A stretch of DNA of 64,000 bases, from the NCBI GenBank assembly GCA_001769035.1, contig MENF01000106.1:17-64016 (forward strand), read 5' to 3'. Of the stretch, positions 10,437 through 62,383 are shown in pieces. A model generated the notes under the pieces. It made no database searches. It was not told the origin of the DNA and worked only from the letters and a program-made list of their open reading frames with translations. This stretch comes from Bacteroidetes bacterium GWA2_32_17 (GTDB taxonomy: Bacteria; Bacteroidota; Bacteroidia; Bacteroidales; GWA2-32-17). The first letter of the stretch is position 1, and every line of letters starts with the position of its first letter. The translations under genes were made by a program, and so were the position numbers.

Positions 10437-10464
10437 ATTTTTTTTTTTAGTGGTTAAAGATATG

Positions 10465-14571: not shown

Positions 14572-14966
14572 TTTACAAAATTTTAAATAATTTTATCTTT
14601 TAAAAAGGTTACAAACCTAATCGAAATTTACAAATTATACAAAATTAATCTGATATTTTAAAAAAATTGTTAAGTTTGGGTTATTTATTGAAAAGAAAAT
14701 TAACCACAAAGGACACAAAGAAAATAAAAGAATATCGAATATTGAATATCGAATGATGAATGATGAAGTAAAAAAATATTGTAAGCAAATAAAATATTTG
14801 TTAATTGTTTGAATAATTGATTTATACTGATACGGAACAAAAATATAAAAAATCTATCACGCCCAGAAGTTTCGCATACACGTCAAGCTAAAAAATAGTT
14901 TTTTGCTGAAAAACCTTATCACACAAGAAATTAAACCCTCATGGGGTTTAAAAAATCAAAAATCGT

Positions 14967-15208
14967 TAATCATGCGAATTAAGGGTTGAATTTTTTTTTC
15001 GTTCCGTTAGGAACGGTATATTGGTAGAAAATATAATTTAATCCAAATTATAGTTCCGTAGGAACGAAATAATTTAAAATATATCATACCTACGGCATTT
15101 GTATGGAGGATGTTATTTGTTTCTACCAATATGTTGTCCCTACGGGACTTTTAGATTCTATCCCGAAGTTTCGTAGCTACCGGTTTTAACCCTTAATTCG
15201 CATTAATC
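14967..15208. repeat. MITE-like element with ~20-bp terminal inverted repeats and nested hairpins
   Basis: gcgaattaagggtt (14974-14987) against aacccttaattcgc (15188-15201). Internal ttggtagaaa/tttctaccaa plus three 5-bp hairpins. Confidence 0.5.
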
Positions 15209-15591
15209 ATTATTGATTATAAAAAAACACCGAATAACTGCCTGTCCCGCCAAAGCGGGAAACATTGAACATCGAATGATGAAGTAAAAAACCCGCTATG
15301 ATGTTAAACAAGAAAATTTCAACTCAAAATATTTTATAGTTGAAGAATGGAATGGTTCGTGGAGACACGAACCAAGGAGTGAATAATTCAGGATTACAAA
15401 TCCTGAATAGCGGGGATATCTACGATTGAAAGGTTACAGCAATTAAAATATCGTGCTTCAAATGAATAACCCCGACATTTATGTCGGGGGTTTGAATGCT
15501 TCGTCTGATACGAGCTTTAGCCCTGATATTCAATCCTTAACTTGACACTCATGCGAAGTTTCGGGAACTTCGGGTTAGATTTGTTATCCGT

Positions 15592-15708
15592 GTTAAGTTG
15601 CTTATACCGATTTAATGTTGGATTTGGCAGGCTTTTACTTGCAGTCATTGTCAAACCACTAAAATGATTGATATTTGTTATTCGTGTCAAGTTGCCCATA
15701 ACAGTGTG
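15592..15708 (-). repeat. attC-like element, degenerate copy (deletion relative to 18094-18227)
   Basis: Aligns to 18107-18227 but lacks about 20 nt, including the inverse-core region. Abuts the stop codon at 15709. Confidence 0.4.
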
Positions 15709-17133: not shown

Positions 17134-17167
17134 GTGTTATATAGTTTTTTTTATTTTTGGCATTATT

Positions 17168-17297
17168 GCTAACGACCAAGGCTAAGTCTTGTGCGGGATT
17201 GCGTGTTGAGTTCCTATCCACAAGTAGAAAAGTTTGGGCGGCGCAATGTCCACCTAAACCTACTGAAACCCGCATAAGACCTAGCCTTTGTTAGCGG
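17168..17297 (-). repeat. attC-like imperfect palindrome
   Basis: gctaacGACCaaggctaagtcttgtgcggg pairs with cccgcataagacctagccttTgttagc. Unequal spacers imply bulged bases. Lies between stop 17325 and start 17133. Confidence 0.55.
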
Positions 17298-17324
17298 CAT
17301 GCCCTTCTGTAATTTACAATTTGT

Positions 17325-17834
17325 TCATACTGCATTCAATATTTCATTATGTGCTTTTCTTACAATTTTGTTATAGTCAAATTGAATTATTCTCACTTTC
17401 TCCAAGTCACCCTGTTTGTTATCAAATATATTTTTAATTGCGTCCAAAAGTTCTTTTTGTTTTCCTATTAAGTCTTTAAAATTTTTCTCGGCAAACTGGG
17501 CAAAGTTTTGAATATCCCAATCTAAATATTGAAGATTAGCAATGCTTGCATTAATAGTTTTAAGCAGTTCATCTTCTTTTTGCTTCGTTTCAGATTTGTT
17601 CTTATTCTTCATATTCTGCTCAAGTTGGGATAAAGAAGTTACGATAACAGAAACATTTTCATCAAACTTAATAGCTCGAATTAAAAATGTTTCAGCCCAA
17701 CGAACTTGCCACTCTTTTTCTTGTAATAGAAACTTTTTGTTTCTTTCAATACTTTTATTAATCAATATGCCCAAAATCAAAATAATTATGGGAGTCAAGC
17801 AAGATGCAATAAGTTTTAAAATTTCAATTGTCAT
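17325..17834 (-). CDS. Hypothetical membrane-anchored coiled-coil protein (cassette ORF)
   Basis: N-terminal TM helix LIASCLTPIIILILGILI, remainder helical and charged. Confidence 0.4.
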   Translation of the reverse strand: MTIEILKLIASCLTPIIILILGILINKSIERNKKFLLQEKEWQVRWAETFLIRAIKFDENVSVIVTSLSQLEQNMKNKNKSETKQKEDELLKTINASIANLQYLDWDIQNFAQFAEKNFKDLIGKQKELLDAIKNIFDNKQGDLEKVRIIQFDYNKIVRKAHNEILNAV

Positions 17835-17888
17835 TTTTTTGTCATTAAATTATTCGACTTTCAAATTATACGCTTTGTTATTTTAGGG

Positions 17889-18092
17889 TTCTGACTAACG
17901 TTTTTATAATTACCATTATATTAATTAGTTACAATTCCTAAATCTTCATTAGTTAATGCAAATTTATCGATTTGTTTTTTAATTCTTTTAACAATTCCGA
18001 GTTTTCTTTTTTGGTCTAAAAATAAATAATTAATTTGATATGTTGTATTTCGTTAGCTTATGAAGTCAATAGTTTTGGGTATAGGGGGGATT
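17889..18092 (-). repeat. Conserved ~200-bp cassette 5' leader, copy 1
   Basis: Near-identical to 19675-19871. Begins right after the G|TT core (minus strand AATCCCCCCTATACC...). Confidence 0.85.
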
Positions 18093-18093
18093 A

Positions 18094-18227
18094 CCGCTAA
18101 CGTTGTAATGTTGGATTTGGCGGGCATTTTCTTGCAGGATGTGCCAAACCGTTAAATGTTTTATAATTTGTTGTCATTGTCAAGTTGCCCATAACTGCCC
18201 AGTTTTTACCAAACGTGTGTTACCTGC
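18094..18227 (-). repeat. attC-like imperfect palindrome
   Basis: Starts 6 nt after the stop at 18234. Outer boxes on the minus strand are GCAGGTAAC...GTTAGCGG. Same family as 54096-54224 and 60003-60134. Confidence 0.55.
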
Positions 18228-18233
18228 TGTGCT

Positions 18234-19634
18234 TTATTTTTGTTCTAAGTTACTTGGAAATTCTTCTGCAATTATTTCGTCAATTGTTTTCTGCACACCC
18301 TGTTTTTTTAATATTTCAAGAATTGCCATTGTTTCTCTATACTCCATTGCTTCTGGTAGTTTAGTGAATTCTGTATTAAATCCTATATCTTTCACTCTTT
18401 GTTCTATTTCTTCAATTGTAACATTAAAAAACTCCTTACGATTGTTAAACATGTTTACTTTCTTTTCAGCAAATGCTTTGTGTAATTCATTTTCAAGTGT
18501 TGGTGCTTCTTCTGAAAACATCATTGCATGAATATCAAATTGAAATGGAACGGAAGCGTCACCTAATTCTTTTATTCTTTCAGTTGGTTCTAATCTACGA
18601 GTCATACCTATTTTGAAAACATTTTCACCAAATGATCCAATATTAGATATTACATAAACATGTCCACGCTTTGTCTGTTGTGCCATAGATATTGCTCTTT
18701 CTTTTTTCTCTTGAGCCTCTTTTAGTTCTTGTTCCAATTTGTCAATTTGAGCTTGAAGTTTTTCGTGTTTGTCGCCAGTAGTTAATTCAATTTCCTTTCG
18801 TGCTTTTTCTAATGCCTTTTGGTAAGTTGCTTCTTCTTTTTCAGCTTCCTTTTGTGCTTGTTCAAATTCTCTTCTTGCTTTCTCTTCTTCTCTTAATTCC
18901 TCTTGGGCTGCTCTTAAAACTTCTTTTTCTTGCTGCCTTTTTGATTGATATTCATATTCAAGAATTAATTCATTTCTTTTCAAATCAAGATATGGCCTAG
19001 TAATATATACATTAAATCCTTCACCTAACTTATTAATTGAAATAAATAATTTTTGCATTCGTTCTCTCATTTGATTAATGTTATTCCACTTTACTTTTGC
19101 AATTAAAACATCGCATTCTCCATTAAATGCTCTTAACATTAATTTTTTATATCTATTTACTACAGCTCTTCCTTTAGCTTCACTATCACCAACAGTCCAA
19201 TTAGTGTCACAAATTGCTGCTTGATCAGAACTAATCATAGTTTTTTGCAAGTCAATAACATGAGCTTGCTCATACCTGTATTGGTCAGAACGCTCAAAAT
19301 CATAAACAGGTTCATAAATACCATACTCAATTAAGTCAAGTTTACTTTCAAATAAACCTACCTCTTTTCTAAGTTTAGTATATGTTTCAAATGCATTTTG
19401 ATAGTCAGTCTTAATTTTATTGAAGTTGTCTTCAATTATTTTTATTTCTGAATACTTATTGTTTATTGTTGAATTAAGTTCGGTTTCCTTTGTTGAAATT
19501 AATTCTTGTAATTGATTATTTTTATTTACTATTTCGTTTTCAATATCAGATATTGGTTTGTAACGGTCAAGTTGTTTTTTGAGTTCGTTAATTTCTTCAA
19601 TTTCCTTTTTCTTTAAAAAGTCAAAAAGTCCCAT
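18234..19634 (-). CDS. DUF4041-like coiled-coil protein with a C-terminal T5orf172 (GIY-YIG-superfamily-like) domain
   Basis: C-terminal GHVYVISN...FKIGMTRRLEPTERIKELGDASVPFQFDIHAMMF...LENELHKAF...EFF matches the T5orf172 pattern from memory. Long E/K-rich coiled coil in the middle. Confidence 0.55.
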   Translation of the reverse strand: MGLFDFLKKKEIEEINELKKQLDRYKPISDIENEIVNKNNQLQELISTKETELNSTINNKYSEIKIIEDNFNKIKTDYQNAFETYTKLRKEVGLFESKLDLIEYGIYEPVYDFERSDQYRYEQAHVIDLQKTMISSDQAAICDTNWTVGDSEAKGRAVVNRYKKLMLRAFNGECDVLIAKVKWNNINQMRERMQKLFISINKLGEGFNVYITRPYLDLKRNELILEYEYQSKRQQEKEVLRAAQEELREEEKARREFEQAQKEAEKEEATYQKALEKARKEIELTTGDKHEKLQAQIDKLEQELKEAQEKKERAISMAQQTKRGHVYVISNIGSFGENVFKIGMTRRLEPTERIKELGDASVPFQFDIHAMMFSEEAPTLENELHKAFAEKKVNMFNNRKEFFNVTIEEIEQRVKDIGFNTEFTKLPEAMEYRETMAILEILKKQGVQKTIDEIIAEEFPSNLEQK

Positions 19635-19674
19635 ATTATGTTATTTTAGGTTGTAATTGTTTTTTTGTAAGCAT

Positions 19675-19871
19675 TCTGACTAACGTTTTTATAATTACCA
19701 GTAAATTAATTAGTTGCAATTCCTAAATCTTCATTAGTTAATGCAAATTTATCGATTTGTTTTTTAATTCTTTTAACAATTCCGAGTTTTCTTTTTTTAT
19801 CTAAAAATAAATAATTTGATATGTCGTATTTCGTTAGCTTAAGAAGTCAATGGCTCGGTATAGGGGGGATT
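19675..19871 (-). repeat. Conserved ~200-bp cassette 5' leader, copy 2
   Basis: Near-identical to 17889-18092. Confidence 0.85.
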
Positions 19872-20492
19872 GCAGGTAACAGTTCGCTATTCCCAACCAG
19901 TTGGGAGTATTTATATTATATCTGTAGTTAATAAATATTTGTAACATCCTTATTATCATTATTAAAATCGTTTTTAACCGTTTATCATCGTTTAACTTAT
20001 TTTCGATATTTTATATATTAAGAATGTTTTCAAAATTAAATTTGAACAAACAAATTTATAAATTATTTTTGAATAAATCAATAAAATTGATATTTATTTT
20101 TTAAAATAATTTATTATATTTGCGTCAATTTATTTTAATATTCTAACTAAAAATATTTAACCCCTCTTGAATTTTTTTTCCCGAAAAAATGGAATATTTT
20201 GAGATTTTTTTGAATTTGTAAAATACAACATCCACATTATCAATAATATATATTTTCTATATCGTTTGTAGTACCAGAAAATAACATTGTTATTTGGTAA
20301 TCCGAATTCCTATATTTATTTTGTCGCAAATTTTTTAAAATAAAATGCGGTGTAATGGACAAAATTAATGGTTTTTATTTTCCTCACTTTGTTGAACATT
20401 TGTTTTTGAGTATTCTTGCTTAGTAATGTGTAGGAAATAAGTTCCTACAAGGCGCATAAAAATTTTAAACCGCAGCATACTAAAGTATGTGA

Positions 20493-26400: not shown

Positions 26401-27893
26401 AACCAATAGTTGAAGGCTTAATTAAAATACAAAAAGCATCGTTTTTAATTCAATATTTACAAACAAGATACAGTGTAACAACCGATGTTATTGTAAAACC
26501 CAATTCATTTAATTTTTCTGATGTTGCAATTTTCGATTCAGAAGGGAATAAAGCAACATTAAATGGTAACATATCACACAATAATTTTAATAATTTAAAA
26601 TTTGATTTAGGAATTGAGACTGATAAATTATTAATGCTGAACACTACCGAAAAAGATAATGAATTATTTTATGGTAAAGCATTCGCCTCGGGAGTAATAG
26701 ATTTAACCGGCACACCCGAAAATTTTAATATTGATGTAACCACAAAAACCGAAAAGAACACAAAAATATTTATCCCTTTATCATCAGGGAGCGAAGTTAA
26801 TCAACAAAATTTTATACATTTTATTAATAACACAAATGATACTGCTAAACAAGTTATAGAACAAAAAATTGACCTGTCGGGGATAAATATGAATTTTAAT
26901 TTTCAGGCAACACACGATGCTGAAGTACAAATAATTTTTGATTCAAAAGTTGGTGACATAATAAAAGGTAAAGGAAATGGTAATTTAAGATTAGAAATTA
27001 CACCTACCGGCGAATTTAAAATGTTTGGCGATTATACAATTGAAAGCGGTGATTATTTGTTTACATTGCAAAATGTTATTAATAAAAAATTTGATATTGT
27101 TAAAGGGGGTACAATAAGCTGGAACGGCGACCCATACATGGCAATTCTTGATATATCAGCAGTTTATAAGTTAAAAGCCAGTTTATATGATTTAATGTTA
27201 GATTCTGCATACAAGCAAAGAGTACCTGTTGAATGTGTTCTTAATATGAGTAACAATTTGCTAAAACCCGATTTTATTTTTAGTATAAAACTTCCCGAAG
27301 GAGACTCTAAACCAAATAATTTAATAAACAGTTTCTCAAACGAAGATTTAAACAAACAAATAATTTCGCTTTTAATACTTAACCGATTTGTAACACCTGA
27401 AATTTATCGCAACACTTTGCAAAGCACAGAAACAAAAGGTACAAATGCAGTTGGAATGAATTCTTCCGAATTACTTTCTAATCAATTAAGTCATTGGCTA
27501 TCACAAATATCAAAAGATTTTGATATTGGAGTTAATTATCGTCCCGGTGACGAGCTTACTCACAATGAAGTTGAACTTGCACTTAGCACTCAAATATTAA
27601 ATGATAGAGTTACACTTAATGGAAATGTTGGAGTTGGAGGGAATCAGGCAACTCAATCGAGCAATTTTGTTGGCGACTTTGAAGTTGATGTAAAAATTAA
27701 CAAATCGGGAAAGCTAATGGTAAAAGGATTTAATCGCTCCAATACCGATATTATAAACGATACAGCACCTTACACTCAAGGATTAGGTTTGTTTTACAGA
27801 GAAGATTTTGATTCCTTTGGTAAGCTATTGCAACAATATTGGAAATCAGTTTTTACCCGCAAACAAGAAGACAAAATAAAAGAAAATAAATAG
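23493..27893 (+). CDS. TamB-like translocation/assembly module protein (DUF490 C-terminus)
   Basis: 1466 aa. N-terminal anchor, long beta-rich repetitive body, and a conserved C-terminal region typical of TamB/AsmA-like proteins. Confidence 0.65.
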   Translation: MAFLRLLFISYIIFKSSFLQTIITQRIASYLSAQLKAEVSLTGVDISLFTSVILENVFVSDQKKDTLLFVKKLNVKIKDINFSNNFIDINKLQLNEPVVNLYLDSLHQMNYSFIIKALSNDSDTTSSLPWKFIIRGLEANNAKFSYKKFAHLAQNSGMNYSDIGISKINLSIKNITYNSDSLKFKIENISGIEKCGIAIGHFSADALIDTNGLFMQNVLITAATSRLAFNYLNFLMKSVDDLDDFENKVKIVADVKKSLIGFKDISYFSSWLWGIKEKIVFEGKIKGKISDFKAKNVKIEYLDNTFISGNFAITGLPNIEQTFMTLAFSELNTNASDLSKIPIYPFTSHNTMEIPIEVKRLGKIYYKGELTGFTGDFVAYGNLKTNIGNLKTDISLKQDVVSGYTKFKGNLASEKFDLGSIVNLKETVGKISLNAKVEGKYKGKKLFANIKGSINDIEFKQYTYKNLKVEGEFTENTFEGSLNINDVNLSMDFLGKIDFSKNIPVFDFTADISKLQLYKLNLVKYDSLLTLSFLLSARFSGNSLDNLLGKIELFNFNYKSSRINEHFGDISITSEKNSLGSNFQLNSNILNASLIGNVHFSNLLTSLNNAINSYVPSLKFIKETENNKVHNEENSFALSIDFYNTDSIFKEFVPKLNIEKNTKLNFNINSIKNTFDLSINNGNISYSGIKANNPEVKIYTENQKLNYLINIKKLELSENANMQNINIQGFTQNNEGEINLSWNNPDSAIYKGDISLLYKLNKINNKFFPSVLLEANPSMLVLSNAEWYVNDAKAEIFDSLINIEQLTINSDSQYVYVNGIISKNTSDTLTVLLNKLNLTNSNLFLKKYGLELNGLVSGNLYISGLLGKTKLLSNINIENFKINNEDIGNAHIISQWDNNSNNILISGSTNRGNIKTLDFNGKYYTNGNIDFDVALDKLKLNLAEPYINSIMSDIKGIAGGKLTIKGSTSKPIVEGLIKIQKASFLIQYLQTRYSVTTDVIVKPNSFNFSDVAIFDSEGNKATLNGNISHNNFNNLKFDLGIETDKLLMLNTTEKDNELFYGKAFASGVIDLTGTPENFNIDVTTKTEKNTKIFIPLSSGSEVNQQNFIHFINNTNDTAKQVIEQKIDLSGINMNFNFQATHDAEVQIIFDSKVGDIIKGKGNGNLRLEITPTGEFKMFGDYTIESGDYLFTLQNVINKKFDIVKGGTISWNGDPYMAILDISAVYKLKASLYDLMLDSAYKQRVPVECVLNMSNNLLKPDFIFSIKLPEGDSKPNNLINSFSNEDLNKQIISLLILNRFVTPEIYRNTLQSTETKGTNAVGMNSSELLSNQLSHWLSQISKDFDIGVNYRPGDELTHNEVELALSTQILNDRVTLNGNVGVGGNQATQSSNFVGDFEVDVKINKSGKLMVKGFNRSNTDIINDTAPYTQGLGLFYREDFDSFGKLLQQYWKSVFTRKQEDKIKENK

Positions 27894-28034
27894 TGTCTGT
27901 CCATAATGTCCGATTTCTGCGTTATTCTCGTATTAAAAAACAGTCATTTACTACAGTAAACTCCTGATTTTTTAATACTTCGAATGCCTTGAACTCGAAC
28001 ATTCTGAATCAGACACTGACTTTATAGACAAACC
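27894..28034 (+). mobile_element. MITE-like element (family with tgtctgtccataatgtc termini)
   Basis: TIR tgtctgtccataatgtc / gactttatagacaaacc. Flanked by TAAATA on both sides. Confidence 0.55.
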
Positions 28035-28405
28035 CTAAATAATATTGGCATTTTTCATACTATAGCTAACGTATTGCTTTATTGCTAAATTGCTTTACCC
28101 CGTTAGATATTTACAAATGGGGGAAATTTTTTGTTTAAATATCATTATCTAACGGGGTGAATTGTTAAGCTGATAAGTTACTAAATGGTTAATGTCCCCC
28201 TTTTTAAAGGGAGTGGGGCGATGAAAATAATGAAACAATAAAACAAAGAAGTTGCTAAATTGCTTTATTGCTAAATTTTATTTCATTGAATTTCATACAT
28301 TTGAATAAATTGTACATCAACATTCTTTTGTTAATAAAAATAAAATCATAAGAAATAACGTTAACACAACATAGCTAATTTAGCTGACTATTAAAATATA
28401 TTTAT

Positions 28406-29541: not shown

Positions 29542-30300
29542 TTGAGTTATAAATTATTGATTATGGAAGCAACTATTAGAAACCGTTATAGTATTATTAT
29601 TACAATATTCTTTCATTTTGGAATATTTGCTTTACTTTTATTATTAGGTTTTAAAACTCCTCTACCTCTTCCAGCCGAACAGGGTATTACTGTTAATTTC
29701 GGTAATTCCGATGATGGCTTTGGAATTACAGAACCTAATCAACTTCAGCAACAAAGTTCAGCTATGCAAAATAATCAGGAAGAAGTTTTAACACAAAATA
29801 TTGAAGATGCAGTTTCAATAAAAAACAATAACATAACAAATAATAATAATCAAACGCAAAACCAAAACCAGCAACAACAACAGCAAGTAAACCAAAATGC
29901 ACTTTTCCCAACAAATCAAAATAATGGCTCGAATAGCGAAGGCGAAACCCATGGAAATGGTAATCAAGGCAACCCTAATGGCGACCCAAACGTAAAAAAT
30001 CATAATGGAACTCCTAATGGAACAGGTAATTCATATTCGCTTGCAGGCAGAAACATTAAAGGAAGTTTGCCCAAACCTAATTACCCCGGAAACGAACAGG
30101 GAAAGGTAGTTGTAGAAATTTTTGTTGATAGAAGCGGCATAATTACCAAAGCTAATGCAGGAATTAAAGGTTCAACACTTTTAAGTAAAAAATATTTAGA
30201 TGCTGCATATAACGCCGCATTAAAAGCAAAATTCGATGCAAACCCCGATGCTGCTGAACTTCAAAGAGGCACGATTACTTACAATTTTATGTTTCAATAA
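29542..30300 (+). CDS. TonB-like energy transducer with a Q/N-rich linker
   Basis: N-terminal TM, low-complexity linker, C-terminal ~80 aa (GKVVVEIFVDRSGII...) TonB-C-like. Operon with exbBD. Confidence 0.6.
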   Translation: MSYKLLIMEATIRNRYSIIITIFFHFGIFALLLLLGFKTPLPLPAEQGITVNFGNSDDGFGITEPNQLQQQSSAMQNNQEEVLTQNIEDAVSIKNNNITNNNNQTQNQNQQQQQQVNQNALFPTNQNNGSNSEGETHGNGNQGNPNGDPNVKNHNGTPNGTGNSYSLAGRNIKGSLPKPNYPGNEQGKVVVEIFVDRSGIITKANAGIKGSTLLSKKYLDAAYNAALKAKFDANPDAAELQRGTITYNFMFQ

Positions 30301-30302
30301 TT

Positions 30303-30425
30303 AGTGTCGGTCCATAATGTCCGATTTTTTCGTTAGGCTTCGAACAAAACTATGGTACGGTTTAAAACCGTGCCATAGTTTGTTGAATGGCAAGCCTCAA
30401 ACTCGAAAATTATAAATCAGACACT
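30303..30425 (+). mobile_element. MITE-like element, short variant
   Basis: agtgtcggtccataatgtccga...aatcagacact, with an internal perfect hairpin ctatggtacggtttaaaaccgtgccatag. Confidence 0.5.
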
Positions 30426-32360: not shown

Positions 32361-32445
32361 TGTTTGTCCATAATGTCCGATTTTTTCGTTATGCTTCTAA
32401 CAAAACTATGGCACGGTTTTAAACCGTGCCATAGTTTGTTGAACT
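32361..32445 (+). mobile_element. MITE-like element, 5' partial copy
   Basis: tgtttgtccataatgtccgattttttcgttatgc plus the ctatggcacgg...ccgtgccatag hairpin. Confidence 0.45.
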
Positions 32446-38492: not shown

Positions 38493-38580
38493 TGTCAGTC
38501 CATACAGCTATGACGGAATTTATTGTAAACATATTTCAGGACAAGACATAACGAAAAAATCGGACATTATAGACAGACTC
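38493..38580 (-). mobile_element. MITE-like element, partial, inverted orientation
   Basis: Reverse complement of 38547-38580 = gagtctgtctataatgtccgattttttcgttatg. Confidence 0.45.
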
Positions 38581-38654
38581 TTTATAAAAAATCATTTTAA
38601 TATTTATGCTTTTAAATTGAAATAACGTATTTTTACAAAAAAATAATTTGTTTT

Positions 38655-53023: not shown

Positions 53024-53160
53024 AATAATCTTAAATCTGTTTTTGCAAATATATAAAGTTGAATAATAATAATACAATAATTTGCATAAATTTATTAACA
53101 TATAAACAATGTACGGGTTAATTGACAAAAAAGTAGGCTAAAAACTTTTGAACTACTTAG

Positions 53161-53327
53161 TGTCTGTCTATAATGTCCGATTTTTTCGTTATGCCCCAGT
53201 ATGCTTCGCTACGGGGTAAACTTGTTTTGAAAACAGTCATTTACATTAGTAAACTCCTTGGTTTTCAAAACTTCGCAAGCCTCAAACTCGAACATTATAG
53301 TTCAGACACTGACTTTATGGACAGACT
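53161..53327 (+). mobile_element. MITE-like element with an 8-bp target-site duplication
   Basis: TIR tgtctgtctataatgtc / gactttatggacagact (14/17). CTACTTAG at 53153-53160 and 53328-53335. Confidence 0.65.
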
Positions 53328-53388
53328 CTACTTAGTAAAAAACCTTGATAACCCCATAGATAAAAACGCATTTTAAAAGCGTGATGTA

Positions 53389-53538: not shown

Positions 53539-54036
53539 TTATTTTATAAAGCCTATAACATCAAAGTGTCCGTTAACCTCAATTTCTTTTTTGTTATAAA
53601 ATACAGTTTCATTTTGGAAATAATAATATTTACATTTTCTATTGTATGCCAATGAATATTTAATTTCAATAGTATCAGTATCTAAATAGTTTAATTTTAG
53701 ATAAAATATTTTTAAAATCACCTGCGATTTTGCTAAATAATCAGATGATTCATTATAAATTGGAAGATAAGAAAAAATACATGAACTAGAATCAGAACTA
53801 TAAGAAAGAGGTAATAGGTTAAAGTTAAAATCAAAAAGTTTGACAGAATCTACGCAATATTCACCAATGCTATCACATATAGATGTTTGTAAGGTGTATA
53901 ATATTTGATTATTTTTATGAATATTAAAAAATGCATTAAAATTTCCATGTACTTCTTTTCCGGGTTCATGGCACCTGTCACAAGAATATAAAGCAATTAT
54001 TATAACTATAAGAATAAAGATATGGTGATATTTCAT
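53539..54036 (-). CDS. Putative lipoprotein, function unknown (cassette ORF)
   Basis: Signal peptide with lipobox ALYSC. 165 aa. Confidence 0.4.
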   Translation of the reverse strand: MKYHHIFILIVIIIALYSCDRCHEPGKEVHGNFNAFFNIHKNNQILYTLQTSICDSIGEYCVDSVKLFDFNFNLLPLSYSSDSSSCIFSYLPIYNESSDYLAKSQVILKIFYLKLNYLDTDTIEIKYSLAYNRKCKYYYFQNETVFYNKKEIEVNGHFDVIGFIK

Positions 54037-54095: not shown

Positions 54096-54224
54096 GCTAA
54101 CGTTTGGTGCTTGGAAAAACTGGGCATTAAGCAGCAGGAAGTGTCAAACCGTTAAATATTTTATATTTTGTTGTCATTGTCAATTTGTACATGTCCGCCC
54201 AGTTTTAACAAACGTGTGTTAGCG
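54096..54224 (-). repeat. attC-like imperfect palindrome
   Basis: ctaac/gttag, cgtttg/caaacg and aaaactgggc/gcccagtttt arms with asymmetric bulges. Same family as 18094-18227. Confidence 0.55.
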
Positions 54225-54230
54225 TTTAGG

Positions 54231-54420
54231 CCGTTATTTCGTTGTTTAATGTTCCGAAGTGTCAAATTTGCAGCAATGTCATTTAGCCCGTGTGTCAGAG
54301 CGGGACGGGCTGGAAGGCTCTTTGGCAAAATTTGGCTAATACGAGAGTTTGTGTGTTTTGCCAATGTGCTTGACAGCGTAAGGAAGGGAGCGTTGATTTG
54401 TTCATTTTCCTGCTTCAATT
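54231..54420. repeat. Related palindromic repeat segment
   Basis: aatgttccgaagtgtcaaatttgcagcaatgtca resembles the attC-family left arm. Hairpins agcccgt...acgggct and ttggcaaaa...ttttgccaa. Confidence 0.4.
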
Positions 54421-54589: not shown

Positions 54590-54754
54590 TCATTCATTTG
54601 ATGTAGGTGGCGGAGGTGGAGGCGGTGGGGCACTTTCCTTTTGAGGAGAAGGCGGTGGAGGTGGTGGTTGAGAATCCCTCATTGGTTTTGTTTGTGCTTT
54701 CTCAATACCTTCATTTAAAGGTTTTACTTTAGGTATTTGATTTTCTTCTTCCAT
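54590..54754 (-). CDS. Possible 54-aa proline-rich micro-protein (below the ORF-track cutoff)
   Basis: ATG at 54754, TGA at 54592-54590. MEEENQIPKVKPLNEGIEKAQTKPMRDSQPPPPPPSPQKESAPPPPPPPPTSNE. Starts 17 nt after the upstream stop. Confidence 0.3.
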   Translation of the reverse strand: MEEENQIPKVKPLNEGIEKAQTKPMRDSQPPPPPPSPQKESAPPPPPPPPTSNE

Positions 54755-54771
54755 TGTTTGAATTTATTTAG

Positions 54772-55410
54772 TTAATATTTCGGTACTTCAATAATAATAT
54801 CTCTATTGCAAAAATTTAAATAAACTTCATCTATTTTATACAATTCTTTACTATCTGAATAATTGTAAACTGTAACTTTTCTTAATGATAACTCTTTATT
54901 ATTTTCATCTTCTGCCCACGAATCTACTTGACCAAGATAAGTCAGCCCATTTTTAATATCTCTTATGTAAACCCAATCAACATTATTTCTATTAAGATAA
55001 TGATAATAAAGGCTATCATCTCCGAATTTATTAGACACTTTTAATGCTTGTGCAATTTTAAAAATTCTCTTACTTTGAATAATATAAGAAATTATATACT
55101 CAATAATTAAAGAAAGTGGTAAACAAAATAAAATTTCAATTAAATGAACATCATTATCTTTTTTTATTATTGCATCCCATATATGTAAATTTTTAAATAC
55201 AAAATCGTCTTTACAAACCTGAAATAATTGAATTAGCCAATAAAGCAGTTGTAAAATAACAAAAGATATTATACCAAGTAAAATAGAACTAATAATAAAC
55301 CTAAAAGGAGTCCATTTCTTATGAATTGTTATTGATTCAACTATTAAGGTTGAAATAATTCATGGAATTAAGATTATTATTAATCTTATTGTAAAGTCAG
55401 TGTATTCCAT
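54772..55410 (-). pseudogene. Multi-TM protein gene with a single in-frame TGA at codon 17
   Basis: ATG 55410 and the ORF-track ORF 55038-54772 are in the same frame (372 nt apart). The only stop between them is TGA at 55362-55360, and there is no ATG/GTG/TTG between that TGA and 55038. Confidence 0.55.
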
Positions 55411-55441
55411 TTTTTATTTCTTTTTTCCTAATTTTTCCAAA

Positions 55442-56440
55442 TTAATGCTTCTTTGCTCGTTTCGAGATTAAATAGAATACAACAATACCAGCTATTACCA
55501 GTATAGGTCCTATCCAAATCGCATTGTATTTCAAGAACTGAAGAGCTATAGGATTACCTGTTATAGTAAGAATCAGCCCAATGAAAACAAATAGTAGTGT
55601 TCCTCCACCAATTAACCATCTATTTTGGATTGCATTAATTTCAGATGACAAGGTATCCTTAATACTTCCAGAAATACTCTGTGAAAGCTGATTAGATTTT
55701 CCATCTAAATCAGTTACTTTGGTAGTCAACTTCTCAATGGAATCATAAATAGCCCCATATTCATTAGATACATTTTTTAATTCAAGATCAATGGCTTTAA
55801 GTTTTTGTCCTAAAATATTCCAAGGATAACCAGACTTTATAAGACCTTCAAGAAGAACCTCTGGACCTCCATCTACTAATGAATTTTCCCATTCTTCTTC
55901 TTTCATTCCAACAGGTGCCCCACCACGCTTTGAACGGATATAACCTGTTTCACCTTGATAATTTCCATCGTAGACACTTTCGGGCCTTTCGTCTTTCTCT
56001 AACTTAAAAATTACAAGACGGAATATTCTTTCCTTAAACACAAACCTGCGCTCTTCGCTTGAAGTATTTGTGATGGTCCAATTCAAAGTTCCATGATAAC
56101 CTGAATCAACATGAGTGGTTGCAGCAACTATGCCCTCACGAGAAAGGTCAGTTGTTGGGCTGACAATTGCATGTAAATCGATATTTGGAAATATTTTTTC
56201 AACAGTTTCTCTGCTAAAATCTAATATCTCGAAAGCAGTTAACGCAACGGAATGACCAGGGGGAACTTTAATTCCCTTTTTCTTCTTTCCAAGTTCAAAT
56301 TCTTTATTTGCATTTAAGAATTCACCAACTTCTCCTAACCTAAGTATATACGAATTCGGTCTCACCGATGTAATGTCCCCGTTAATAATAACTGAACCAA
56401 GTAATTTCTTTATCTCATGGTCGGAAATTAAAGTAGCCAT
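55442..56440 (-). CDS. dCTP deaminase/dUTPase-fold domain protein with a coiled coil and two C-terminal TM helices
   Basis: Dcd-like motif order: LISDHEI, SYILRLG, PGHSVALTAFE, DLSREG, VDSGYHGTLNWTITN, RIFRLVIFKL, YDGNYQGE. C-terminal helices LIGGGTLLFVFIGLILTITG and IWIGPILVIAGIVVFYLI. Confidence 0.6.
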   Translation of the reverse strand: MATLISDHEIKKLLGSVIINGDITSVRPNSYILRLGEVGEFLNANKEFELGKKKKGIKVPPGHSVALTAFEILDFSRETVEKIFPNIDLHAIVSPTTDLSREGIVAATTHVDSGYHGTLNWTITNTSSEERRFVFKERIFRLVIFKLEKDERPESVYDGNYQGETGYIRSKRGGAPVGMKEEEWENSLVDGGPEVLLEGLIKSGYPWNILGQKLKAIDLELKNVSNEYGAIYDSIEKLTTKVTDLDGKSNQLSQSISGSIKDTLSSEINAIQNRWLIGGGTLLFVFIGLILTITGNPIALQFLKYNAIWIGPILVIAGIVVFYLISKRAKKH

Positions 56441-56511
56441 AATATTTTTTTTTTTGATGTTATATTTTTATGAAATGCGAATATACAACTTTTTGAATTA
56501 CCATTTTTTTA

Positions 56512-56895
56512 TTACCCCTCTACAATTTTTATTTCCTCTTCCGCTAAATCATAAATTCTATTGTAAAACCAATCATGATTGTTATTTACGATCATTCTTT
56601 CGAATGAAGTTATTTTTTTGTTTTTATTAAATTTTTTTATAATCGTATAGAGGTGTTTGTAGTTTGAATAATTTTTCAATGCGGTGTTAACCTGGTCTTT
56701 CCATAAATTAATCAGTTGAATATGATTTGTTGTTTTTTTTTGAACAGCAAATTTGTACATCTTCTCAAGGTTATGCAATAATTTCTCCATTTGCTTTTCG
56801 GTTTTATTTTGGCATAACCATTCAACATACTTGTTTTTATTAAGTATGTTATCATTTATTTTTTCCTGAATTTCAATATCTGTTCTTATTTTCAT
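56512..56895 (-). CDS. Small ORF translationally coupled to the R-M gene
   Basis: ATGA start/stop overlap with the upstream gene. C-terminus NRIYDLAEEEIKIVEG echoes the R-M C-terminus IVYQLYDLTEDEIKIIEEK. Confidence 0.4.
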   Translation of the reverse strand: MKIRTDIEIQEKINDNILNKNKYVEWLCQNKTEKQMEKLLHNLEKMYKFAVQKKTTNHIQLINLWKDQVNTALKNYSNYKHLYTIIKKFNKNKKITSFERMIVNNNHDWFYNRIYDLAEEEIKIVEG

Positions 56896-59654
56896 TTCTC
56901 CTCAATTATTTTAATTTCATCCTCTGTTAAATCGTAGAGTTGATACACGATTTCATTTATTCTGTTTTCGCAATAATCAATTTTACCTTGATTTTGCGAC
57001 ACTTTTGATTGTAGTTTTATTTCTTGTAGTTCAATATTTAATTTCAAAATTTGTTCAACTAACTTTTCAATTTCATTTTGTATTTCCTTATTTGCAGTAG
57101 CAATTGGAAGTTGTTCTAATTGTCCCATTAGAATTTGCGGAAATCCTTGTGAATTTGTTACAAGCCGTTTAGATAAATAAAATGAAAGAAATTTTGAGTT
57201 AAGTAATCCTAAAAGAAATTTAAGATTTATTTTATTACTACGTAAAATATATAAAGTGCTTTCGATTAGTTCTTGTTTGTCAGAATATGTAGCACATAAA
57301 CTGCTTCCTGTTCTTCGAATTAGCAAACGAGGAATAGTAGTTTGTTTTTTATAATCTCTTGTGCCTCCTATAATTTCTAATTTTTCATATTCTGCATATC
57401 TGTCATAATAATAACTATATCGTTTCATACAATTACCTAAAAGAAATGGCAAAGATTTTTTTGTTGGAGTTTGCGTTAGTATATCATTGCGATTTTTTAC
57501 AACCATGCCTTTTGACATTTCAACTAATTCGCCCATAAGTTTTGAGGAACTTAAAATTTTCTTGAAAAATAGTTTACTTGAATCGTCAAAGGAAACATCC
57601 CAAGATTCAAGACTTTTGTTTAATTTAATTTCTTGAATTACTTTTTGTTGTTGAGTTGTGTCGATTTTTACAATTTTAGTTTTCTCTTTTGAGTTCTTTT
57701 CGCCAACTATAATTGTTGTTCCAATAGTTGCGTCTTGAAAAACAAAATGGTCAAACGTTACAATGGAATTAAGATTAAAATTCTCTAAAATAATTTCTCT
57801 GATTTTTCCGTTACTGTCAGTTGTTAATAATGCTTCTGGAGTAATAAAAGAAAATATTTTGGGCGAAAGTTTAGAAACTTTTTCTAAAAATAACTGGAAT
57901 AGATTTTTTGAACTACCACCCGAGTAAGAATTAAAATTATTTTGGTAATAGGAAAGTAAATCAGCATCGCTGTTACTTATGGTAAGTTTTAAATATGGCG
58001 GATTTCCGATCACACAATCAAACCCACCTTGCTTAAAAATATTAGGAAATCCGTTATGCCAGTTAAATGGCTTTATTTTTTTCTCATCACCATAATCTAA
58101 TTGGTTACTATAAAAATCTGTACCAACTAAGCTATTCCCACATTTAATATTTTCGTCAAGTGTTGGTAAAACTCTTTCGTTAAACAATTTAAACTGATAA
58201 TTAATAGAAGCATTTGTTTCGCCTTCCATACATTTAAGCAATAATGAGAGCTTTGTTACTTCAACTGCGTTTACATCTATATCAACTCCGAAAATATTGT
58301 TGAGTAAAATTCTTTTCTTTTCCGCCGTTGTTAAATATCCTTCAGGTGTTAAAGTATTTTCCTTTTTTACTTTTGATGGCTTGCCATTATTAGAATAATA
58401 ATTTTTATGAAAGTCAAGCAAATACTGATAAGCACCAATTAAAAAACTACCACTGCCGCAGGCAGGGTCAACTATTTTTATTTTGCTTATTTCTTTTGGT
58501 GTTCTTCCCTCTATTAGTTTACCGACTGTGTTTTTTACGATGTATTCAACTACATATTGAGGCGTGTAATAAACTCCTCCGGCTTTTCTTACTTCGGGTT
58601 TTTCTTCAATTTTTGCATGATGTGCTTTGTCAATGGAAATGGTTTTTCCCAAAAATTGTTCGTAAGCACTGCCTAAAATTTCAACCGATAAAACAGAAAA
58701 TTCATAAGGACTTTCGGGATAATATAATTCGCTAACAATTGTCTTTATAATTTTATTTTCAATTTTTAAATTCTTGCTTATTTTATCTTTTTTTAAGTCA
58801 AAAATTCCTGAATTGTATTTGTCGTCTGCTTCCTGAAATATTTTAAAAAGATTTTGGTAATAATCACCTTGTTTTAATGCCGTTTTTAAATTTCCATAAA
58901 CCTCTACACTTCTGGCCTCTGCAATTCGTAAAAAAATTATTCTATCAATTGTTTGTTGAACAGCAAAATTAATTTCATCTTCGTCAAGGCCTTTATTATT
59001 CCAACTTATAGAAGTAGCTAAATAAGTTCTCCATTTGTCAAGCGATTGTAAAAACTCTTTGTCAACGGTAGCTGTACCTTTTTTATTTGCAGAGTTTTGT
59101 AAAAACTTATCGAAACTTCCTTTTAATACATGTTCTTTTGAAAAAGTCTCCCAAATAAAGTCAAACTTATTAAGATAATCTTTATAAGTAAAATATTCAA
59201 TTCGGGCAACTGATGCTTTGTCTGTAGGGTTTGGCTTTTTTGAACAATCATAAATTGAGAACTCTTCAAAGTCGGTGATTATGCTTATTGCTAATTTTGC
59301 ATTCCATCCGTAGCGTCTGACCTGATATGCAGGATGAATATCATCTTTAATTGCAACACTTGGTTTTTTTGCTTCAACAAAAAATAATCTTTTTCCTCCA
59401 CCAATTCTAAATGAATAGTCGGGTGCTTTTGTTGCTCCTGCAATTTTTATTTTGTCTTCGTGAATTACTTCTCTGTATGATTCTGCATAATCTTGTTCAT
59501 TGTCAATGTCCCAACCAAGTGTCTTAAAGAACGGGTCAATGAAGTCTCGCCTTGTTTGAGTTTCGTTATAATCGCTGTTTTTATATTCGTTGATATGAAA
59601 GTCAAAACGTTGAACTAATTTTTCGATTTCTATTTTTGCTTGTTCTTTAGTCAT
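56892..59654 (-). CDS. Type IIG (Eco57I/MmeI-like) fused restriction endonuclease-N6-adenine methyltransferase
   Basis: N-terminal PD-(D/E)xK-like PDYSF...FFVEAKK, SAM motif VDPACGSGSFL, catalytic NPPY, C-terminal specificity-like domain. 920 aa. Confidence 0.85.
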   Translation of the reverse strand: MTKEQAKIEIEKLVQRFDFHINEYKNSDYNETQTRRDFIDPFFKTLGWDIDNEQDYAESYREVIHEDKIKIAGATKAPDYSFRIGGGKRLFFVEAKKPSVAIKDDIHPAYQVRRYGWNAKLAISIITDFEEFSIYDCSKKPNPTDKASVARIEYFTYKDYLNKFDFIWETFSKEHVLKGSFDKFLQNSANKKGTATVDKEFLQSLDKWRTYLATSISWNNKGLDEDEINFAVQQTIDRIIFLRIAEARSVEVYGNLKTALKQGDYYQNLFKIFQEADDKYNSGIFDLKKDKISKNLKIENKIIKTIVSELYYPESPYEFSVLSVEILGSAYEQFLGKTISIDKAHHAKIEEKPEVRKAGGVYYTPQYVVEYIVKNTVGKLIEGRTPKEISKIKIVDPACGSGSFLIGAYQYLLDFHKNYYSNNGKPSKVKKENTLTPEGYLTTAEKKRILLNNIFGVDIDVNAVEVTKLSLLLKCMEGETNASINYQFKLFNERVLPTLDENIKCGNSLVGTDFYSNQLDYGDEKKIKPFNWHNGFPNIFKQGGFDCVIGNPPYLKLTISNSDADLLSYYQNNFNSYSGGSSKNLFQLFLEKVSKLSPKIFSFITPEALLTTDSNGKIREIILENFNLNSIVTFDHFVFQDATIGTTIIVGEKNSKEKTKIVKIDTTQQQKVIQEIKLNKSLESWDVSFDDSSKLFFKKILSSSKLMGELVEMSKGMVVKNRNDILTQTPTKKSLPFLLGNCMKRYSYYYDRYAEYEKLEIIGGTRDYKKQTTIPRLLIRRTGSSLCATYSDKQELIESTLYILRSNKINLKFLLGLLNSKFLSFYLSKRLVTNSQGFPQILMGQLEQLPIATANKEIQNEIEKLVEQILKLNIELQEIKLQSKVSQNQGKIDYCENRINEIVYQLYDLTEDEIKIIEEK

Positions 59655-59844
59655 TGAATATTTTATTTTCTCAAAAATACAATTAATAATATTATGAAGG
59701 GTCGGAAAAAAAGCATGTGTGTGACTGCGAAGGGATGCATGCAGGGACGGGCAGTAAACACTCTTGCTTTTTGTGTGTCGGGGAATACCACAATTTTGTC
59801 ATTTTGCTGCAAATATTCCGAATCTCTGTCTTTTTTTACGGCTT

Positions 59845-59914
59845 AAAGTTAACTAATCGCTATGTGTACCTTATCCGACATTAATTGTTTACAACCATTT
59901 ATAAGCATTTGCTT
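59845..59914 (-). repeat. Direct repeat, copy 1 (aaagttaactaat...acattaattgtttacaaccatttataagcatttgctt)
   Basis: Matches 60788-60929 except for a ~75-nt insertion in the latter. Confidence 0.85.
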
Positions 59915-60002: not shown

Positions 60003-60134
60003 AAATAACGGTTGGCGCTTAAAAAATCTGGGCATTTAACCAACGTCATTATCAAACCGCCACAAAGTTACGAATTATTTTATAATTGTCAAGTTGCTAC
60101 ACAAGCCCAGTTTTTTTTAAACGTGTGTTAGTGC
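60003..60134 (-). repeat. attC-like imperfect palindrome
   Basis: Begins 12 nt after the antitoxin stop. Minus-strand boxes CACTAAC...GTTATTT. ctgggc/gcccag and A/T-run arms. Same family as the other long copies. Confidence 0.5.
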
Positions 60135-60145: not shown

Positions 60146-60454
60146 TTAGAATTGTAGTGATAGTTTCAAATGCCCACCAAGTCCTTGTTGAATTATTTTC
60201 ATTAATGTAGAAAGTCTGATGTCGCTAGCATTGTTCTCGATGCGTGAAATATAAGATTTATTAGTTCCGCATTTTTCAGCAAGTTCTTCTTGAGTCATGC
60301 CTAGTTTAATTCTTGCTTCTTCAAGAAGAACACCAAGTCTAAATGCTTCAAATTCTTGTTCCCATTCTTCACGCTTTTTAACTCCTCGTTTTCCATATTT
60401 TTTGTCAAGGAGTTCGTCCAATGATGTTAGATTTTTATTTGCTTTATTTTTCAT
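60146..60454 (-). CDS. XRE-family HTH antitoxin (HigA-like)
   Basis: 102 aa. HTH segment MTQEELAEKCGTNKSYISRIENN. Overlaps the toxin gene by 11 nt. Confidence 0.8.
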   Translation of the reverse strand: MKNKANKNLTSLDELLDKKYGKRGVKKREEWEQEFEAFRLGVLLEEARIKLGMTQEELAEKCGTNKSYISRIENNASDIRLSTLMKIIQQGLGGHLKLSLQF

Positions 60455-60782
60455 TGCTATATTCCTCCATTATTTTAAGTGCTCGTTCGATTTCTCGTTT
60501 TGGTGTTTTTTGTGTTTTCTTTTGAAATGCATTTCCGAGAACAACTAGATTCCCTTTGTCAAAGAATGAAAATATTCTATAAATATTCCCACCAACTTCA
60601 ACTCTTACTTCATATAGTCCCTTTTTGCTTTCAATATGTTTAAAATATTTTTCAGGTACTTGCCTTGTTACTCTAATTAAATTTAATGTCCACTCAATTT
60701 TAGCCTGAACACTGTCTGTCTGTTCAGTATAAAAGTCTAGAAAATAGTTTTTATAAGCTACTACTTGTCTTACGAGATTCAT
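60444..60782 (-). CDS. RelE/ParE-superfamily toxin (HigB / Gp49-like)
   Basis: 112 aa. ...GLYEVRVEVGGNIYRIFSFFDKGNLVVLGNAFQKKTQKTP pattern. Toxin-first gene order. Confidence 0.75.
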   Translation of the reverse strand: MNLVRQVVAYKNYFLDFYTEQTDSVQAKIEWTLNLIRVTRQVPEKYFKHIESKKGLYEVRVEVGGNIYRIFSFFDKGNLVVLGNAFQKKTQKTPKREIERALKIMEEYSNEK

Positions 60783-60787
60783 GGCAC

Positions 60788-60929
60788 AAAGTTAACTAAT
60801 TAGACAACATTTTCCAAATTTTTTCTTAATTATTTTAGGGCACGTCTTTTTTATGCATTAGCACTTACTAGTAGCTATGTATGATATATCCAACATTAAT
60901 TGTTTACAACCATTTATAAGCATTTGCTT
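60788..60929 (-). repeat. Direct repeat, copy 2
   Basis: See 59845-59914. On the minus strand it contains TAACTTTG (fits the Bacteroidota -7 box TAnnTTTG) 4 nt before the toxin ATG. Confidence 0.85.
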
Positions 60930-62056: not shown

Positions 62057-62257
62057 ATATTTGTGATGTTTAATTCAAAAACTAATCCAATACCCAAATA
62101 ACAAATTCTAAAATTCAAAAATAAATCAATGCTCAATTAACAACATATAGTTTGCAATATTCAGATTCTTCGCTAATCACTCAGAATGACAAAAATGGAA
62201 TAGTAAACTATGAACATTTTTGAACTATAAACCATAAACCCGAAACTTTTTTTATTG

Positions 62258-62346
62258 GTTTAGGGTTTTTAGTTTGAGGTTTTTAGTTTGAGGTTTTTGG
62301 TTTGAGGTTTTTGGTTTGAGGTTTTTGGTTTGAGGTTTTTGGTTGT
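62258..62346. repeat. 14-bp tandem repeat (gtttgag+gtttttg), ~6 units, i.e. GTTTNNN heptamer array
   Basis: Read directly. Flanked by NNNAAAC heptamer runs at 62224-62247 and 62350-62375. Confidence 0.9.
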
Positions 62347-62383
62347 TAAAAACTTTGAACTCGAAACTATAAACTGGTTAAAC

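Follow-up and report, generated by a model that had tools for sequence, protein, structure and literature searches.

A probable defence-island mosaic in Bacteroidetes bacterium GWA2_32_17: a Type IIG restriction enzyme beside two uncharacterised candidate defence modules

Positions 54590–59654 of a 64 000-nucleotide (nt) stretch of Bacteroidetes bacterium GWA2_32_17 (contig MENF01000106.1; hereafter the window is this whole stretch) carry five genes, here called A to E: a Type IIG restriction-modification (R-M) enzyme (A), a small protein behind it (B), a protein joining a Dcd/dUTPase-fold head to the membrane (C), a membrane protein probably of the DUF6338 family (D) and a proline-rich micro-protein (E). 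A sequence-only reading of this DNA had taken the five genes for one candidate defence operon. We consider it quite probable, instead, that the block is a defence-island mosaic in which three evolutionarily independent modules lie head to tail, with C and D+E as candidate defence modules. As judged from gene content across genomes, the modules are A+B, C alone and D+E, a division we draw because each of the three is found without the others. The block thus combines one known module, by virtue of the restriction enzyme of A+B, with two uncharacterised candidate defence modules, C and D+E.

The evidence that carries this interpretation is the distribution of the genes in other genomes. In 83 other C-bearing loci, a tblastn search with A, B, D and E returned nothing next to C, and it did so only in a locus identical to the window (L084; compared loci are numbered with an L), so that the pairing of the Dcd-fold gene with a transmembrane partner suggested by the sequence-only reading is not a conserved neighbourhood. 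A crude gene map of the C-bearing loci showed that the gene neighbourhood of C differs in nearly every one of them. D+E occurs without A, B and C in ten other loci (L085/86, L099–L105, L110 and L111), and the three other contexts in which B was found (L088–91, L092–94 and L095–97) hold none of C, D and E.

The sequence-only reading was right about the layout: five co-directional minus-strand open reading frames (ORFs) lie where it had placed them (Table 1), its gaps of −4, 71, 31 and 17 nt are all correct, and its view of the block as accessory and of defence type is supported. That layout is also what speaks for A to E being a single defence system, co-evolved and as yet undescribed, whose R-M enzyme would work with the Dcd-fold protein, the multi-transmembrane protein and the micro-ORF: the genes are co-directional and closely spaced with no internal consensus promoter or terminator, every part has defence-type contexts elsewhere, and a Type IIG R-M gene lies near DUF6338 in three Bacteroidota loci. 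However, A, B, D and E accompany C in 0 of 83 loci, A+B and D+E each occur without the remaining genes, and a stop codon breaks D at the window locus itself. As co-conservation of the Dcd-fold gene with its downstream partners is lacking across genomes, we reject the single five-gene system, which we regard as highly improbable.

Co-transcription of A to E is nonetheless plausible, and would reflect juxtaposition. A Bacteroidota-type −7 motif (TAnnTTTG) occurs near a start codon only upstream of A within the block, while the B–C, C–D and D–E gaps contain no such motif and the gaps hold no terminator-like hairpin on the minus strand. The motif ahead of A, TATTTTTG, is accordingly listed as a candidate promoter of the whole block (Table 1). 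A sigma-70 promoter scan was uninformative in this Bacteroidota-type genome.

Table 1. Features of the block and its immediate surroundings (window coordinates).
Feature	Position	Strand	Description
A	56892–59654	minus	920 aa, Type IIG restriction-modification enzyme
B	56512–56895	minus	127 aa, probable partner of the Type IIG subfamily of A
C	55442–56440	minus	332 aa, Dcd/dUTPase-fold head and predicted membrane hairpin
D	54772–55410	minus	membrane protein, probably of the DUF6338 family; premature stop
In-frame TGA	55360–55362	minus	codon 17 of D
E	54590–54754	minus	54 aa, proline-rich micro-protein
TATTTTTG	59672–59679	minus	Bacteroidota-type −7 motif (TAnnTTTG), consensus match; its end lies 17 nt ahead of the A start codon (ATG)
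HTH_3 antitoxin	60146–60454	minus	Pfam HTH_3, 2.8e-14
Gp49-like toxin	60444–60782	minus	HigB/RelE-type; Pfam Gp49, 2.5e-20
Dispersed repeat	54098–54222		about 125 nt, intergenic; closes the block
Dispersed repeat, second copy	60006–60131		after the toxin-antitoxin pair
Dispersed repeat, third copy	18134–18222

The first module is an R-M enzyme with a small companion. Within the 920 residues of A, a single ORF, Pfam places HSDR_N at 29–142 (3e-9), N6_Mtase/Eco57I/MmeI_Mtase at 325–679 (8e-20 for N6_Mtase, 1.6e-34 for Eco57I) and TaqI_C at 736–851 (5e-20), an architecture of N-terminal PD-(D/E)xK nuclease, gamma-class N6-adenine methyltransferase and TaqI_C-type target-recognition domain. PADLOC assigns the protein to REase_MTase_IIG (1.1e-188), and its translation contains the AdoMet-binding motif I (VDPACGSGSFL) and the catalytic motif IV (GNPPY) of N6-adenine methyltransferases. 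The Type IIG identity proposed for A in the sequence-only reading, which had pointed to DPACGSGSFL and NPPY, is thus confirmed by the Pfam domains and by PADLOC. From its domain content A is a complete Type IIG R-M, with nuclease, methyltransferase and target recognition in one polypeptide; it would methylate its own recognition site and cut unmethylated incoming DNA.

To our knowledge, Type IIG enzymes have been described as acting alone. The full architecture of the single-chain Eco57I/MmeI-like enzymes is present in A as well, but its subfamily differs from them by a conserved, translationally coupled partner of 127 residues, B, for which we found no family match in Pfam, NCBIfam, PHROG or PADLOC. 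The start of B overlaps the stop of A by 4 nt. Homologues of B, which form 21 clusters, lie directly 3′ of a HSDR_N/N6_Mtase/Eco57I/TaqI_C gene in all three independent contexts named above, two of which repeat the 4-nt overlap with the R-M gene. The homologue alignment revealed an invariant VEWLCQNKTEKQ core in a protein that is helical by composition, along with a C-terminal YDLAEEEIKIVE that echoes the C-terminus of A and takes the form YDLxEEEIKI in many members. Because this position behind the Type IIG subfamily is constant, it argues for B as a functional partner of these enzymes; it would be a subfamily-specific helical protein, translationally coupled to A and perhaps serving as a regulator or assembly factor.

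The second module, C, belongs to a large family: the homologue set comprises at least 401 clusters at > 55% identity, mostly of 325–337 amino acids (aa), from Bacteroidota, Verrucomicrobia, Hydrogenedentes and others. An AF2 model (mean pLDDT 77) gives a head at about residues 1–175 with its beta-barrel over residues 1–150, a conserved but poorly modelled linker (172–218), a helix of some 89–90 residues (207–295) and a second helix that runs to 331, with two C-terminal hydrophobic segments (about 273–329) forming a predicted membrane hairpin before a basic C-terminus. The sequence-only reading had remarked that two of the genes join a soluble domain to transmembrane helices, and this is true of C and D. 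In a 25-sequence alignment the transmembrane helices of C are poorly conserved, and a juxtamembrane LQNRWL is invariant.

Foldseek and HMMER agree on the relatives of the head. The top matches, by sequence as well as by structure, are archaeal Dcd-like dUTPases (2yzj/2zdc of S. tokodaii, 8y1w of T. pacificus and P45 9ln0), followed by bifunctional DCD-DUT and Dcd enzymes, with a Foldseek probability of 1.00, TM-scores to target of 0.77–0.86 and an HMMER E-value of 3.5e-15 against 2yzj. The head has the Dcd/dUTPase beta-barrel fold with its SxxR, (V/I)DxG(Y/W) and YxGxYQ motifs, and is presumed to be trimeric. Its phosphate- and sugar-binding motifs (TDLSREG, VDxGYxG and YxGxYQG) are invariant, as are residues T97, D98 and R101, D112, G114 and Y115, and Y157, G159, Y161 and Q162. 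C therefore shares the SxxR, VDxGY/W and YxGxYQG motifs of the archaeal enzymes. In contrast, those enzymes are soluble proteins of about 150–170 aa, to which C adds the conserved linker, the helix of about 90 residues and the membrane hairpin, and they carry an Asp in motif 1 where C has Ile or Val.

Many homologues of C are named ‘deoxycytidine triphosphate deaminase’ by JGI. The catalytic Glu of Dcd (Glu138 in E. coli Dcd) lies on the strand that follows the GxxG motif. The strand of C that would correspond to it reads GTLNWTITN and contains no acidic residue in any of the 25 sequences, with G117, T118, N120, W121, T122 and N125 invariant. C also scores below the cut-offs of both relevant models (TIGR02274: 1e-11, 44.9 bits against 92.8; PF22769: 7e-6, 26.6 bits against 27), and although 23 of the 25 aligned members match PF22769, they do so weakly (best 1.2e-6). 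Given the sub-threshold Dcd scores and the lack of an acidic residue in the Glu strand, C is, as far as its sequence can tell, no dCTP deaminase, and for the same reasons the JGI name is probably wrong.

Several homologues of C lie in defence-type or mobile surroundings. At L055 its homologue stands between HmaB (1.8e-111) and HmaC (2.5e-91), the gaps being 47 and 5 nt, in the order helicase, PIN_12, HmaB, C, HmaC; the locus as a whole (1–10749) reads as an Hma system that hosts two embedded genes, the PIN_12 protein and the C homologue. Within a Type I operon at L021, C follows hsdM and hsdS (gaps of 1 and 4 nt) and is itself followed by four small or uncharacterised genes and hsdR; those four (3130–6861) encode a 767-aa GNAT-domain protein and then products of 148, 193 and 75 aa, maybe embedded candidates in their own right. 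At L034 C lies between a methylase gene and hsdS–hsdR, and at L015 it is found 23 nt upstream of a Type III Mod gene (3.6e-139) with a ResIII gene downstream. Elsewhere C sits between the terminase large subunit and the gpW/portal genes of a lambda-like prophage (L068, identical to L098, the sole IMG/VR match of C) or among IS1595 and IS21 transposases and serine recombinases (L106). Among the 141 neighbours within three genes of C, R-M methylases, specificity subunits, IS1/IS200 transposases, TIR, NYN and trypsin-like peptidases recur. On these grounds C appears to be a stand-alone accessory gene, for which the case as a defence gene is good but unproven.

These settings also bear on whether C is a housekeeping or niche enzyme of nucleotide metabolism, that is, a non-immune membrane dUTPase or dCTP deaminase whose R-M adjacency reflects island carriage only. 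The JGI name given to many homologues, the retention of the nucleotide-binding motifs of the fold and the housekeeping-like surroundings of some loci are all consistent with such a role. Yet the dCTP_deam equivalog score (44.9 against 92.8 bits) and the GTLNWTITN strand without an acidic residue run counter to it, the neighbourhood changes in almost each locus, C turns up inside Hma, Type I and Type III operons as well as within a prophage, and identity of > 55% over Bacteroidota, Verrucomicrobia and Hydrogenedentes indicates horizontal transfer. We consider a housekeeping role decidedly unlikely.

Embedding of this kind has precedent: seven of the nine tested candidates embedded in Hma were validated as defences (Payne et al., 2024, bioRxiv 10.1101/2024.01.29.577857), and C occupies the same type of position, flanked by HmaB and HmaC at one locus and by hsdS and hsdR at another, to which the ‘guilt by embedding’ argument of that study applies. 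It differs from those candidates in not being among HEC-01 to HEC-09 and in lacking a match in PADLOC v2.0.0, whose library includes candidate PDC models; no PADLOC family, DCD/AvcD and dGTPase included, was found for C at E ≤ 0.01. The predicted, unvalidated defence domains of PMC13092281 include a dUTPase domain, and our literature search found nothing specific on membrane Dcd-like or dUTPase-like defence proteins or on PF22769.

A functional parallel may be found in the nucleotide-depletion defences, namely the dCTP deaminase DCD/AvcD and a dGTPase, which Tal and colleagues and Hsueh and colleagues reportedly described in 2021. Like them, C is a single gene with a deoxynucleotide-type domain that is found in defence islands, and the starvation logic proposed for it, directed at deoxynucleoside triphosphates, is the same. 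Those proteins are soluble and built either on the zinc cytidine-deaminase fold or around an HD phosphohydrolase domain; C differs by its presumably trimeric Dcd/dUTPase beta-barrel fold, by having no deaminase Glu, by its membrane anchor and by having no PADLOC match. We know of no validated defence system that uses the dUTPase-type fold of C.

We envisage C as a cytoplasmic, trimeric Dcd/dUTPase-fold head whose long helix would form a trimeric coiled coil leading to the membrane hairpin. It would bind, and probably hydrolyse, a deoxynucleoside triphosphate at the membrane, and either deplete a nucleotide required by the phage or have its membrane part triggered when a nucleotide binds; that one or other of these, depletion or sensing, is how C acts has slightly better than even prospects in our judgement. 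Hydrolysis is uncertain because the Asp of motif 1 is replaced by Ile or Val: all 25 members read Y-[IV]-L-R, against Y-D-L-R in 2yzj, 8y1w and 9ln0. It is an attractive thought that modified phage nucleotides might be the target of C, whose action would then complement the restriction systems that carry it.

The motif-1 replacement also speaks for C being purely a nucleotide sensor, in which catalysis is lost and binding of a phage-derived or infection-induced nucleotide makes the coiled coil open or assemble the hairpins and kill the cell (abortive infection). Besides the replacement in 25 of 25 aligned members beside invariant binding motifs, the single 89-residue helix that runs directly into the membrane hairpin of the AF2 model and the invariant juxtamembrane LQNRWL would fit such a switch. 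On the other hand, the transmembrane helices are poorly conserved, as expected of a plain anchor, the trimer and the pore are our own extrapolations, and the classical second Asp of motif 3 is missing from Dcd-like dUTPases as well, so that sequence alone cannot reveal a loss of activity. We regard the sensor as possible but rather unlikely, and keep to the broader reading in which C either depletes or senses a nucleotide.

The third module pairs D with E, and in the window genome it is damaged. The sequence-only reading had taken D for an intact ORF of 212 codons, overlooking an in-frame TGA at codon 17. In the family alignment this codon replaces a nearly invariant Gly behind an invariant Pro, and one change (GGA to TGA) would account for it. 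TGA is an ordinary stop here, ending eight of the 45 long ORFs in the window, and with long genes intact under table 11 this rules out recoding (code 4 or 25). Sequencing error is likewise ruled out, since a contig from another sample (L087) carries the identical TGA with 1 nt difference in 747. The ‘W’ given at codon 17 in database entry P0121 is a gene-caller artefact, as the contig reads TGA. Thus D is probably a recent pseudogene in the window genome, where the D+E module is probably inactive; read-through may nevertheless occur, because the frame stays open for 195 codons beyond the TGA.

Close homologues of D form only six clusters, with intact lengths of 212–231 aa, and a profile built from six D sequences extends the family to 1175 clusters at 50% identity, nearly all of them full-length (200–260 aa). 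Window D itself has no Pfam match at E ≤ 0.01, but PF19865 (DUF6338) matches 22 of the 51 aligned family members (best 7.2e-10) and RefSeq plasmid homologues are named ‘DUF6338 family protein’, so that transitive homology would place D in this family, from whose other proteins it differs by its truncating stop. The sequence-only reading had found all four genes other than A unassignable; this holds for their function, and B, C, D and E each lack a matching PADLOC model, but not for family in the case of D. The 51 aligned members gave no meaningful match to PADLOC either. D was not found in IMG/VR with the six-sequence alignment, and a BFVD fold search returned one full-length match only, to an uncharacterised protein.

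The AF2 model of D, built on six sequences and with a mean pLDDT of 70.5, has three N-terminal transmembrane helices, amphipathic helices and a five-stranded Sm/LSm-like barrel that would be cytoplasmic, judging from its basic loops. Its best PDB matches by Foldseek are Sm/LSm proteins, at TM-scores to target of 0.64–0.77 and weak E-values of about 1e-3. The Sm-like barrel fold normally forms rings. MscS-type channels also combine transmembrane helices with a following Sm-like barrel; the likeness is one of architecture only, and Pfam showed no sequence match to MscS families in D.

A small proline-rich ORF accompanies DUF6338 genes well beyond the window. In E an KPLNEGIEKAQTKP motif precedes the poly-proline runs PPPPPPSP and PPPPPPPP, and at L085/L086 a 49-aa ORF that is 53% identical to E lies 16–17 nt downstream of the D homologue. 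By eye, all 11 DUF6338 loci, drawn from four phyla, have a small same-strand ORF with a tail rich in proline and lysine that starts about −100 to +110 nt from the DUF6338 stop. Under a fixed criterion (at least six Pro in the last 25 residues) 10 of the 11 loci pass; across 102.5 kb, 19 of 784 small ORFs qualify, 11 of which are at the post-DUF6338 position. The Bacteroidota copies share KPL(N/H/R)EG(I/V)(E/Q)K..(T/S/N)KP ahead of the poly-proline run, and the proteobacterial ones carry one to three (E/D)G(F/L/Y/V) motifs. The pairing was seen in Bacteroidota, Gamma- and Alphaproteobacteria, Bacillota and a P2-like phage. The ORF often goes unannotated, as at L099 (NZ_CP071844.1, ~5593–5727) and L100 (NC_016747.1, where it overlaps the 3016–3699 gene at its end), and at L110 the gene caller missed it (4615–4734). 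Mass spectrometry in P. stutzeri has detected three small proline-rich proteins whose genes share an operon with a DUF6338 gene (PMC10433244). There, as in the window, the small ORF follows DUF6338; whereas those proteins were reported as confined to the species, the pairing described here spans several bacterial groups and a phage.

Several homologues of D+E lie on mobile elements or beside defence-type genes. A 4.2-kb mobilisable plasmid, pOCEGK02, carries the pair as its sole cargo besides a RelE/ParE toxin-antitoxin (TA) pair and a MobV relaxase, and a DUF6338 homologue with a proline-rich ORF is also found on a Vibrio plasmid, in a cassette array with many TA pairs. In the P2-like Yersinia phage vB_YenM_06.16-2 the pair lies between tum and the portal gene Q, which we take to be the old/tin moron site of P2. 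Other DUF6338 neighbours include TIR and caspase genes (Citrobacter), a caspase and a nuclease (B. cereus), and ADP-ribosyltransferase and RES genes (Pantoea). On the Citrobacter plasmid (L101, NZ_CP136725.1, 3263–5787) the TIR gene, a caspase-family gene, an 89-aa ORF, the DUF6338-like gene and the proline-rich ORF are co-directional and maybe part of a larger unit. At L085 (GCA_964420555.1) the D homologue follows another Type IIG enzyme, one that shares 31% identity with A, and neither B nor C is present; next to the D+E homologues there, a defence island (11409–20294) encodes an M78 peptidase, a 1264-aa nSTAND3 protein and AbiEii/AbiEi. DefensePredictor, moreover, puts DUF6338 proteins of E. 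coli under the heading ‘Predicted novel defense gene’ (PMC13092281, Tables S5 and S10).

A quieter role for D+E, as a non-immune accessory pair of membrane homeostasis or secondary metabolism of which the window holds a decaying pseudogene remnant, would be in keeping with one homologue that lies between clpX and housekeeping genes, and with the premature stop in window D. It is at odds with the phage moron site, the small-plasmid cargo and the TA-rich cassette array, with TIR, caspase, RES, AbiE and nSTAND neighbours, and with the machine-learning prediction of a defence gene. We think a non-immune role unlikely, though worth keeping in mind, and prefer to see D+E as a toxin/regulator-type or phage-exclusion pair. 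D would oligomerise into a ring-shaped membrane assembly that perturbs the membrane, and E, as a disordered micro-protein, would restrain it or act as a sensor. The two-gene layout with a small, labile-looking partner resembles that of type II TA pairs.

Several points weigh against the mosaic with its two candidate defence modules. We infer, first of all, both the defence role and the mechanism of C and of D+E. The motif-1 substitution of C and the modest model of D with its weak Sm-like matches, both described above, belong here too. In addition, the neighbourhood of C at L108 is housekeeping-like (a BNR protein and a radical SAM enzyme), the recurrence of neighbours near C is a raw tally without a genome-wide background in which clearly housekeeping genes also appear, and C was found in none of 72 556 plasmids and is nearly absent from IMG/VR. 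ORFs in the related loci were called crudely, as longest ORFs without a gene finder. Finally, DUF6338 adjoins a Type IIG R-M gene in three of five Bacteroidota contexts (the window, L085 and L111), because of which modules 1 (A+B) and 3 (D+E) may be functionally linked.

Beyond the block, the TA module that the sequence-only reading had seen nearby is confirmed by Pfam as a Gp49-like toxin with an HTH_3 protein (60146–60782). The dispersed intergenic repeat that closes the block (Table 1) is 71% identical over 129 nt to the copy after the TA pair and 86.5% identical over 89 nt to the third copy (blastn). An exact 36-nt repeat (59879–59914 and 60894–60929) precedes the Type IIG gene as well as the Gp49/HTH pair; it belongs to an 83-nt repeat of 81% identity and is possibly a shared promoter region or the trace of a duplication. 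The repeat pair at 59852–59914 and 60867–60929 is likewise real. Further dispersed repeats, REP- or MITE-like, occur at 53154–53194 (copies at 38547–38581, 30298–30338, 32361–32394 and 27891–27925) and 53230–53330 (copy at 27937–28037). Because the first family and several others are scattered across the window, the flanking repeats look like genome-wide intergenic repeats, and we rejected them as cassette ends or as an integron-like structure.

The G+C content of the block is not distinctive. The non-coding stretches that flank it (54160–54420 and 59690–59830) exceed their surroundings in G+C; searched for non-coding RNA, these spacers yielded neither an Rfam family, whether at gathering score or at E ≤ 1, nor a tRNA or tmRNA. 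A short way downstream of the block, 53539–54036 encodes a predicted lipoprotein of 165 aa with an N-terminal hydrophobic helix, a Cys at position 19 and no family match. Farther off, at 62252–62349, a tandem array of about seven copies of a 14-nt TTTTTAGTTTGAGG-like unit lies between glycosyltransferase and Tricorn-like protease genes.

In sum, A is ordinary, C and D+E are widespread uncharacterised candidates, and what is new as a general observation is that DUF6338 has a micro-protein partner. We put the chance that at least one uncharacterised module, either C or DUF6338 with its proline-rich micro-protein, is a new anti-phage system at a little short of even. Dissecting the block in this way yields three testable items: the C family, the DUF6338 + micro-protein unit, and the small partner of a Type IIG enzyme subfamily, B. 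With the second of these, a DUF of 1175 clusters becomes a defined two-gene unit and a proteomic observation from a single species is extended. The first is a large, highly conserved single-gene family that links a dUTPase-type head to the membrane and occurs inside Hma, Type I and Type III operons. If our reading of C is true, a membrane-tethered dUTPase-fold protein repeatedly hosted by R-M-type systems might destroy or sense phage-specific, possibly modified deoxynucleotides by which phages evade restriction. If that of D+E is true, DUF6338 and its micro-protein would constitute a widespread two-gene exclusion system, in which poly-proline would tie the supply of E to the translation state of the host.

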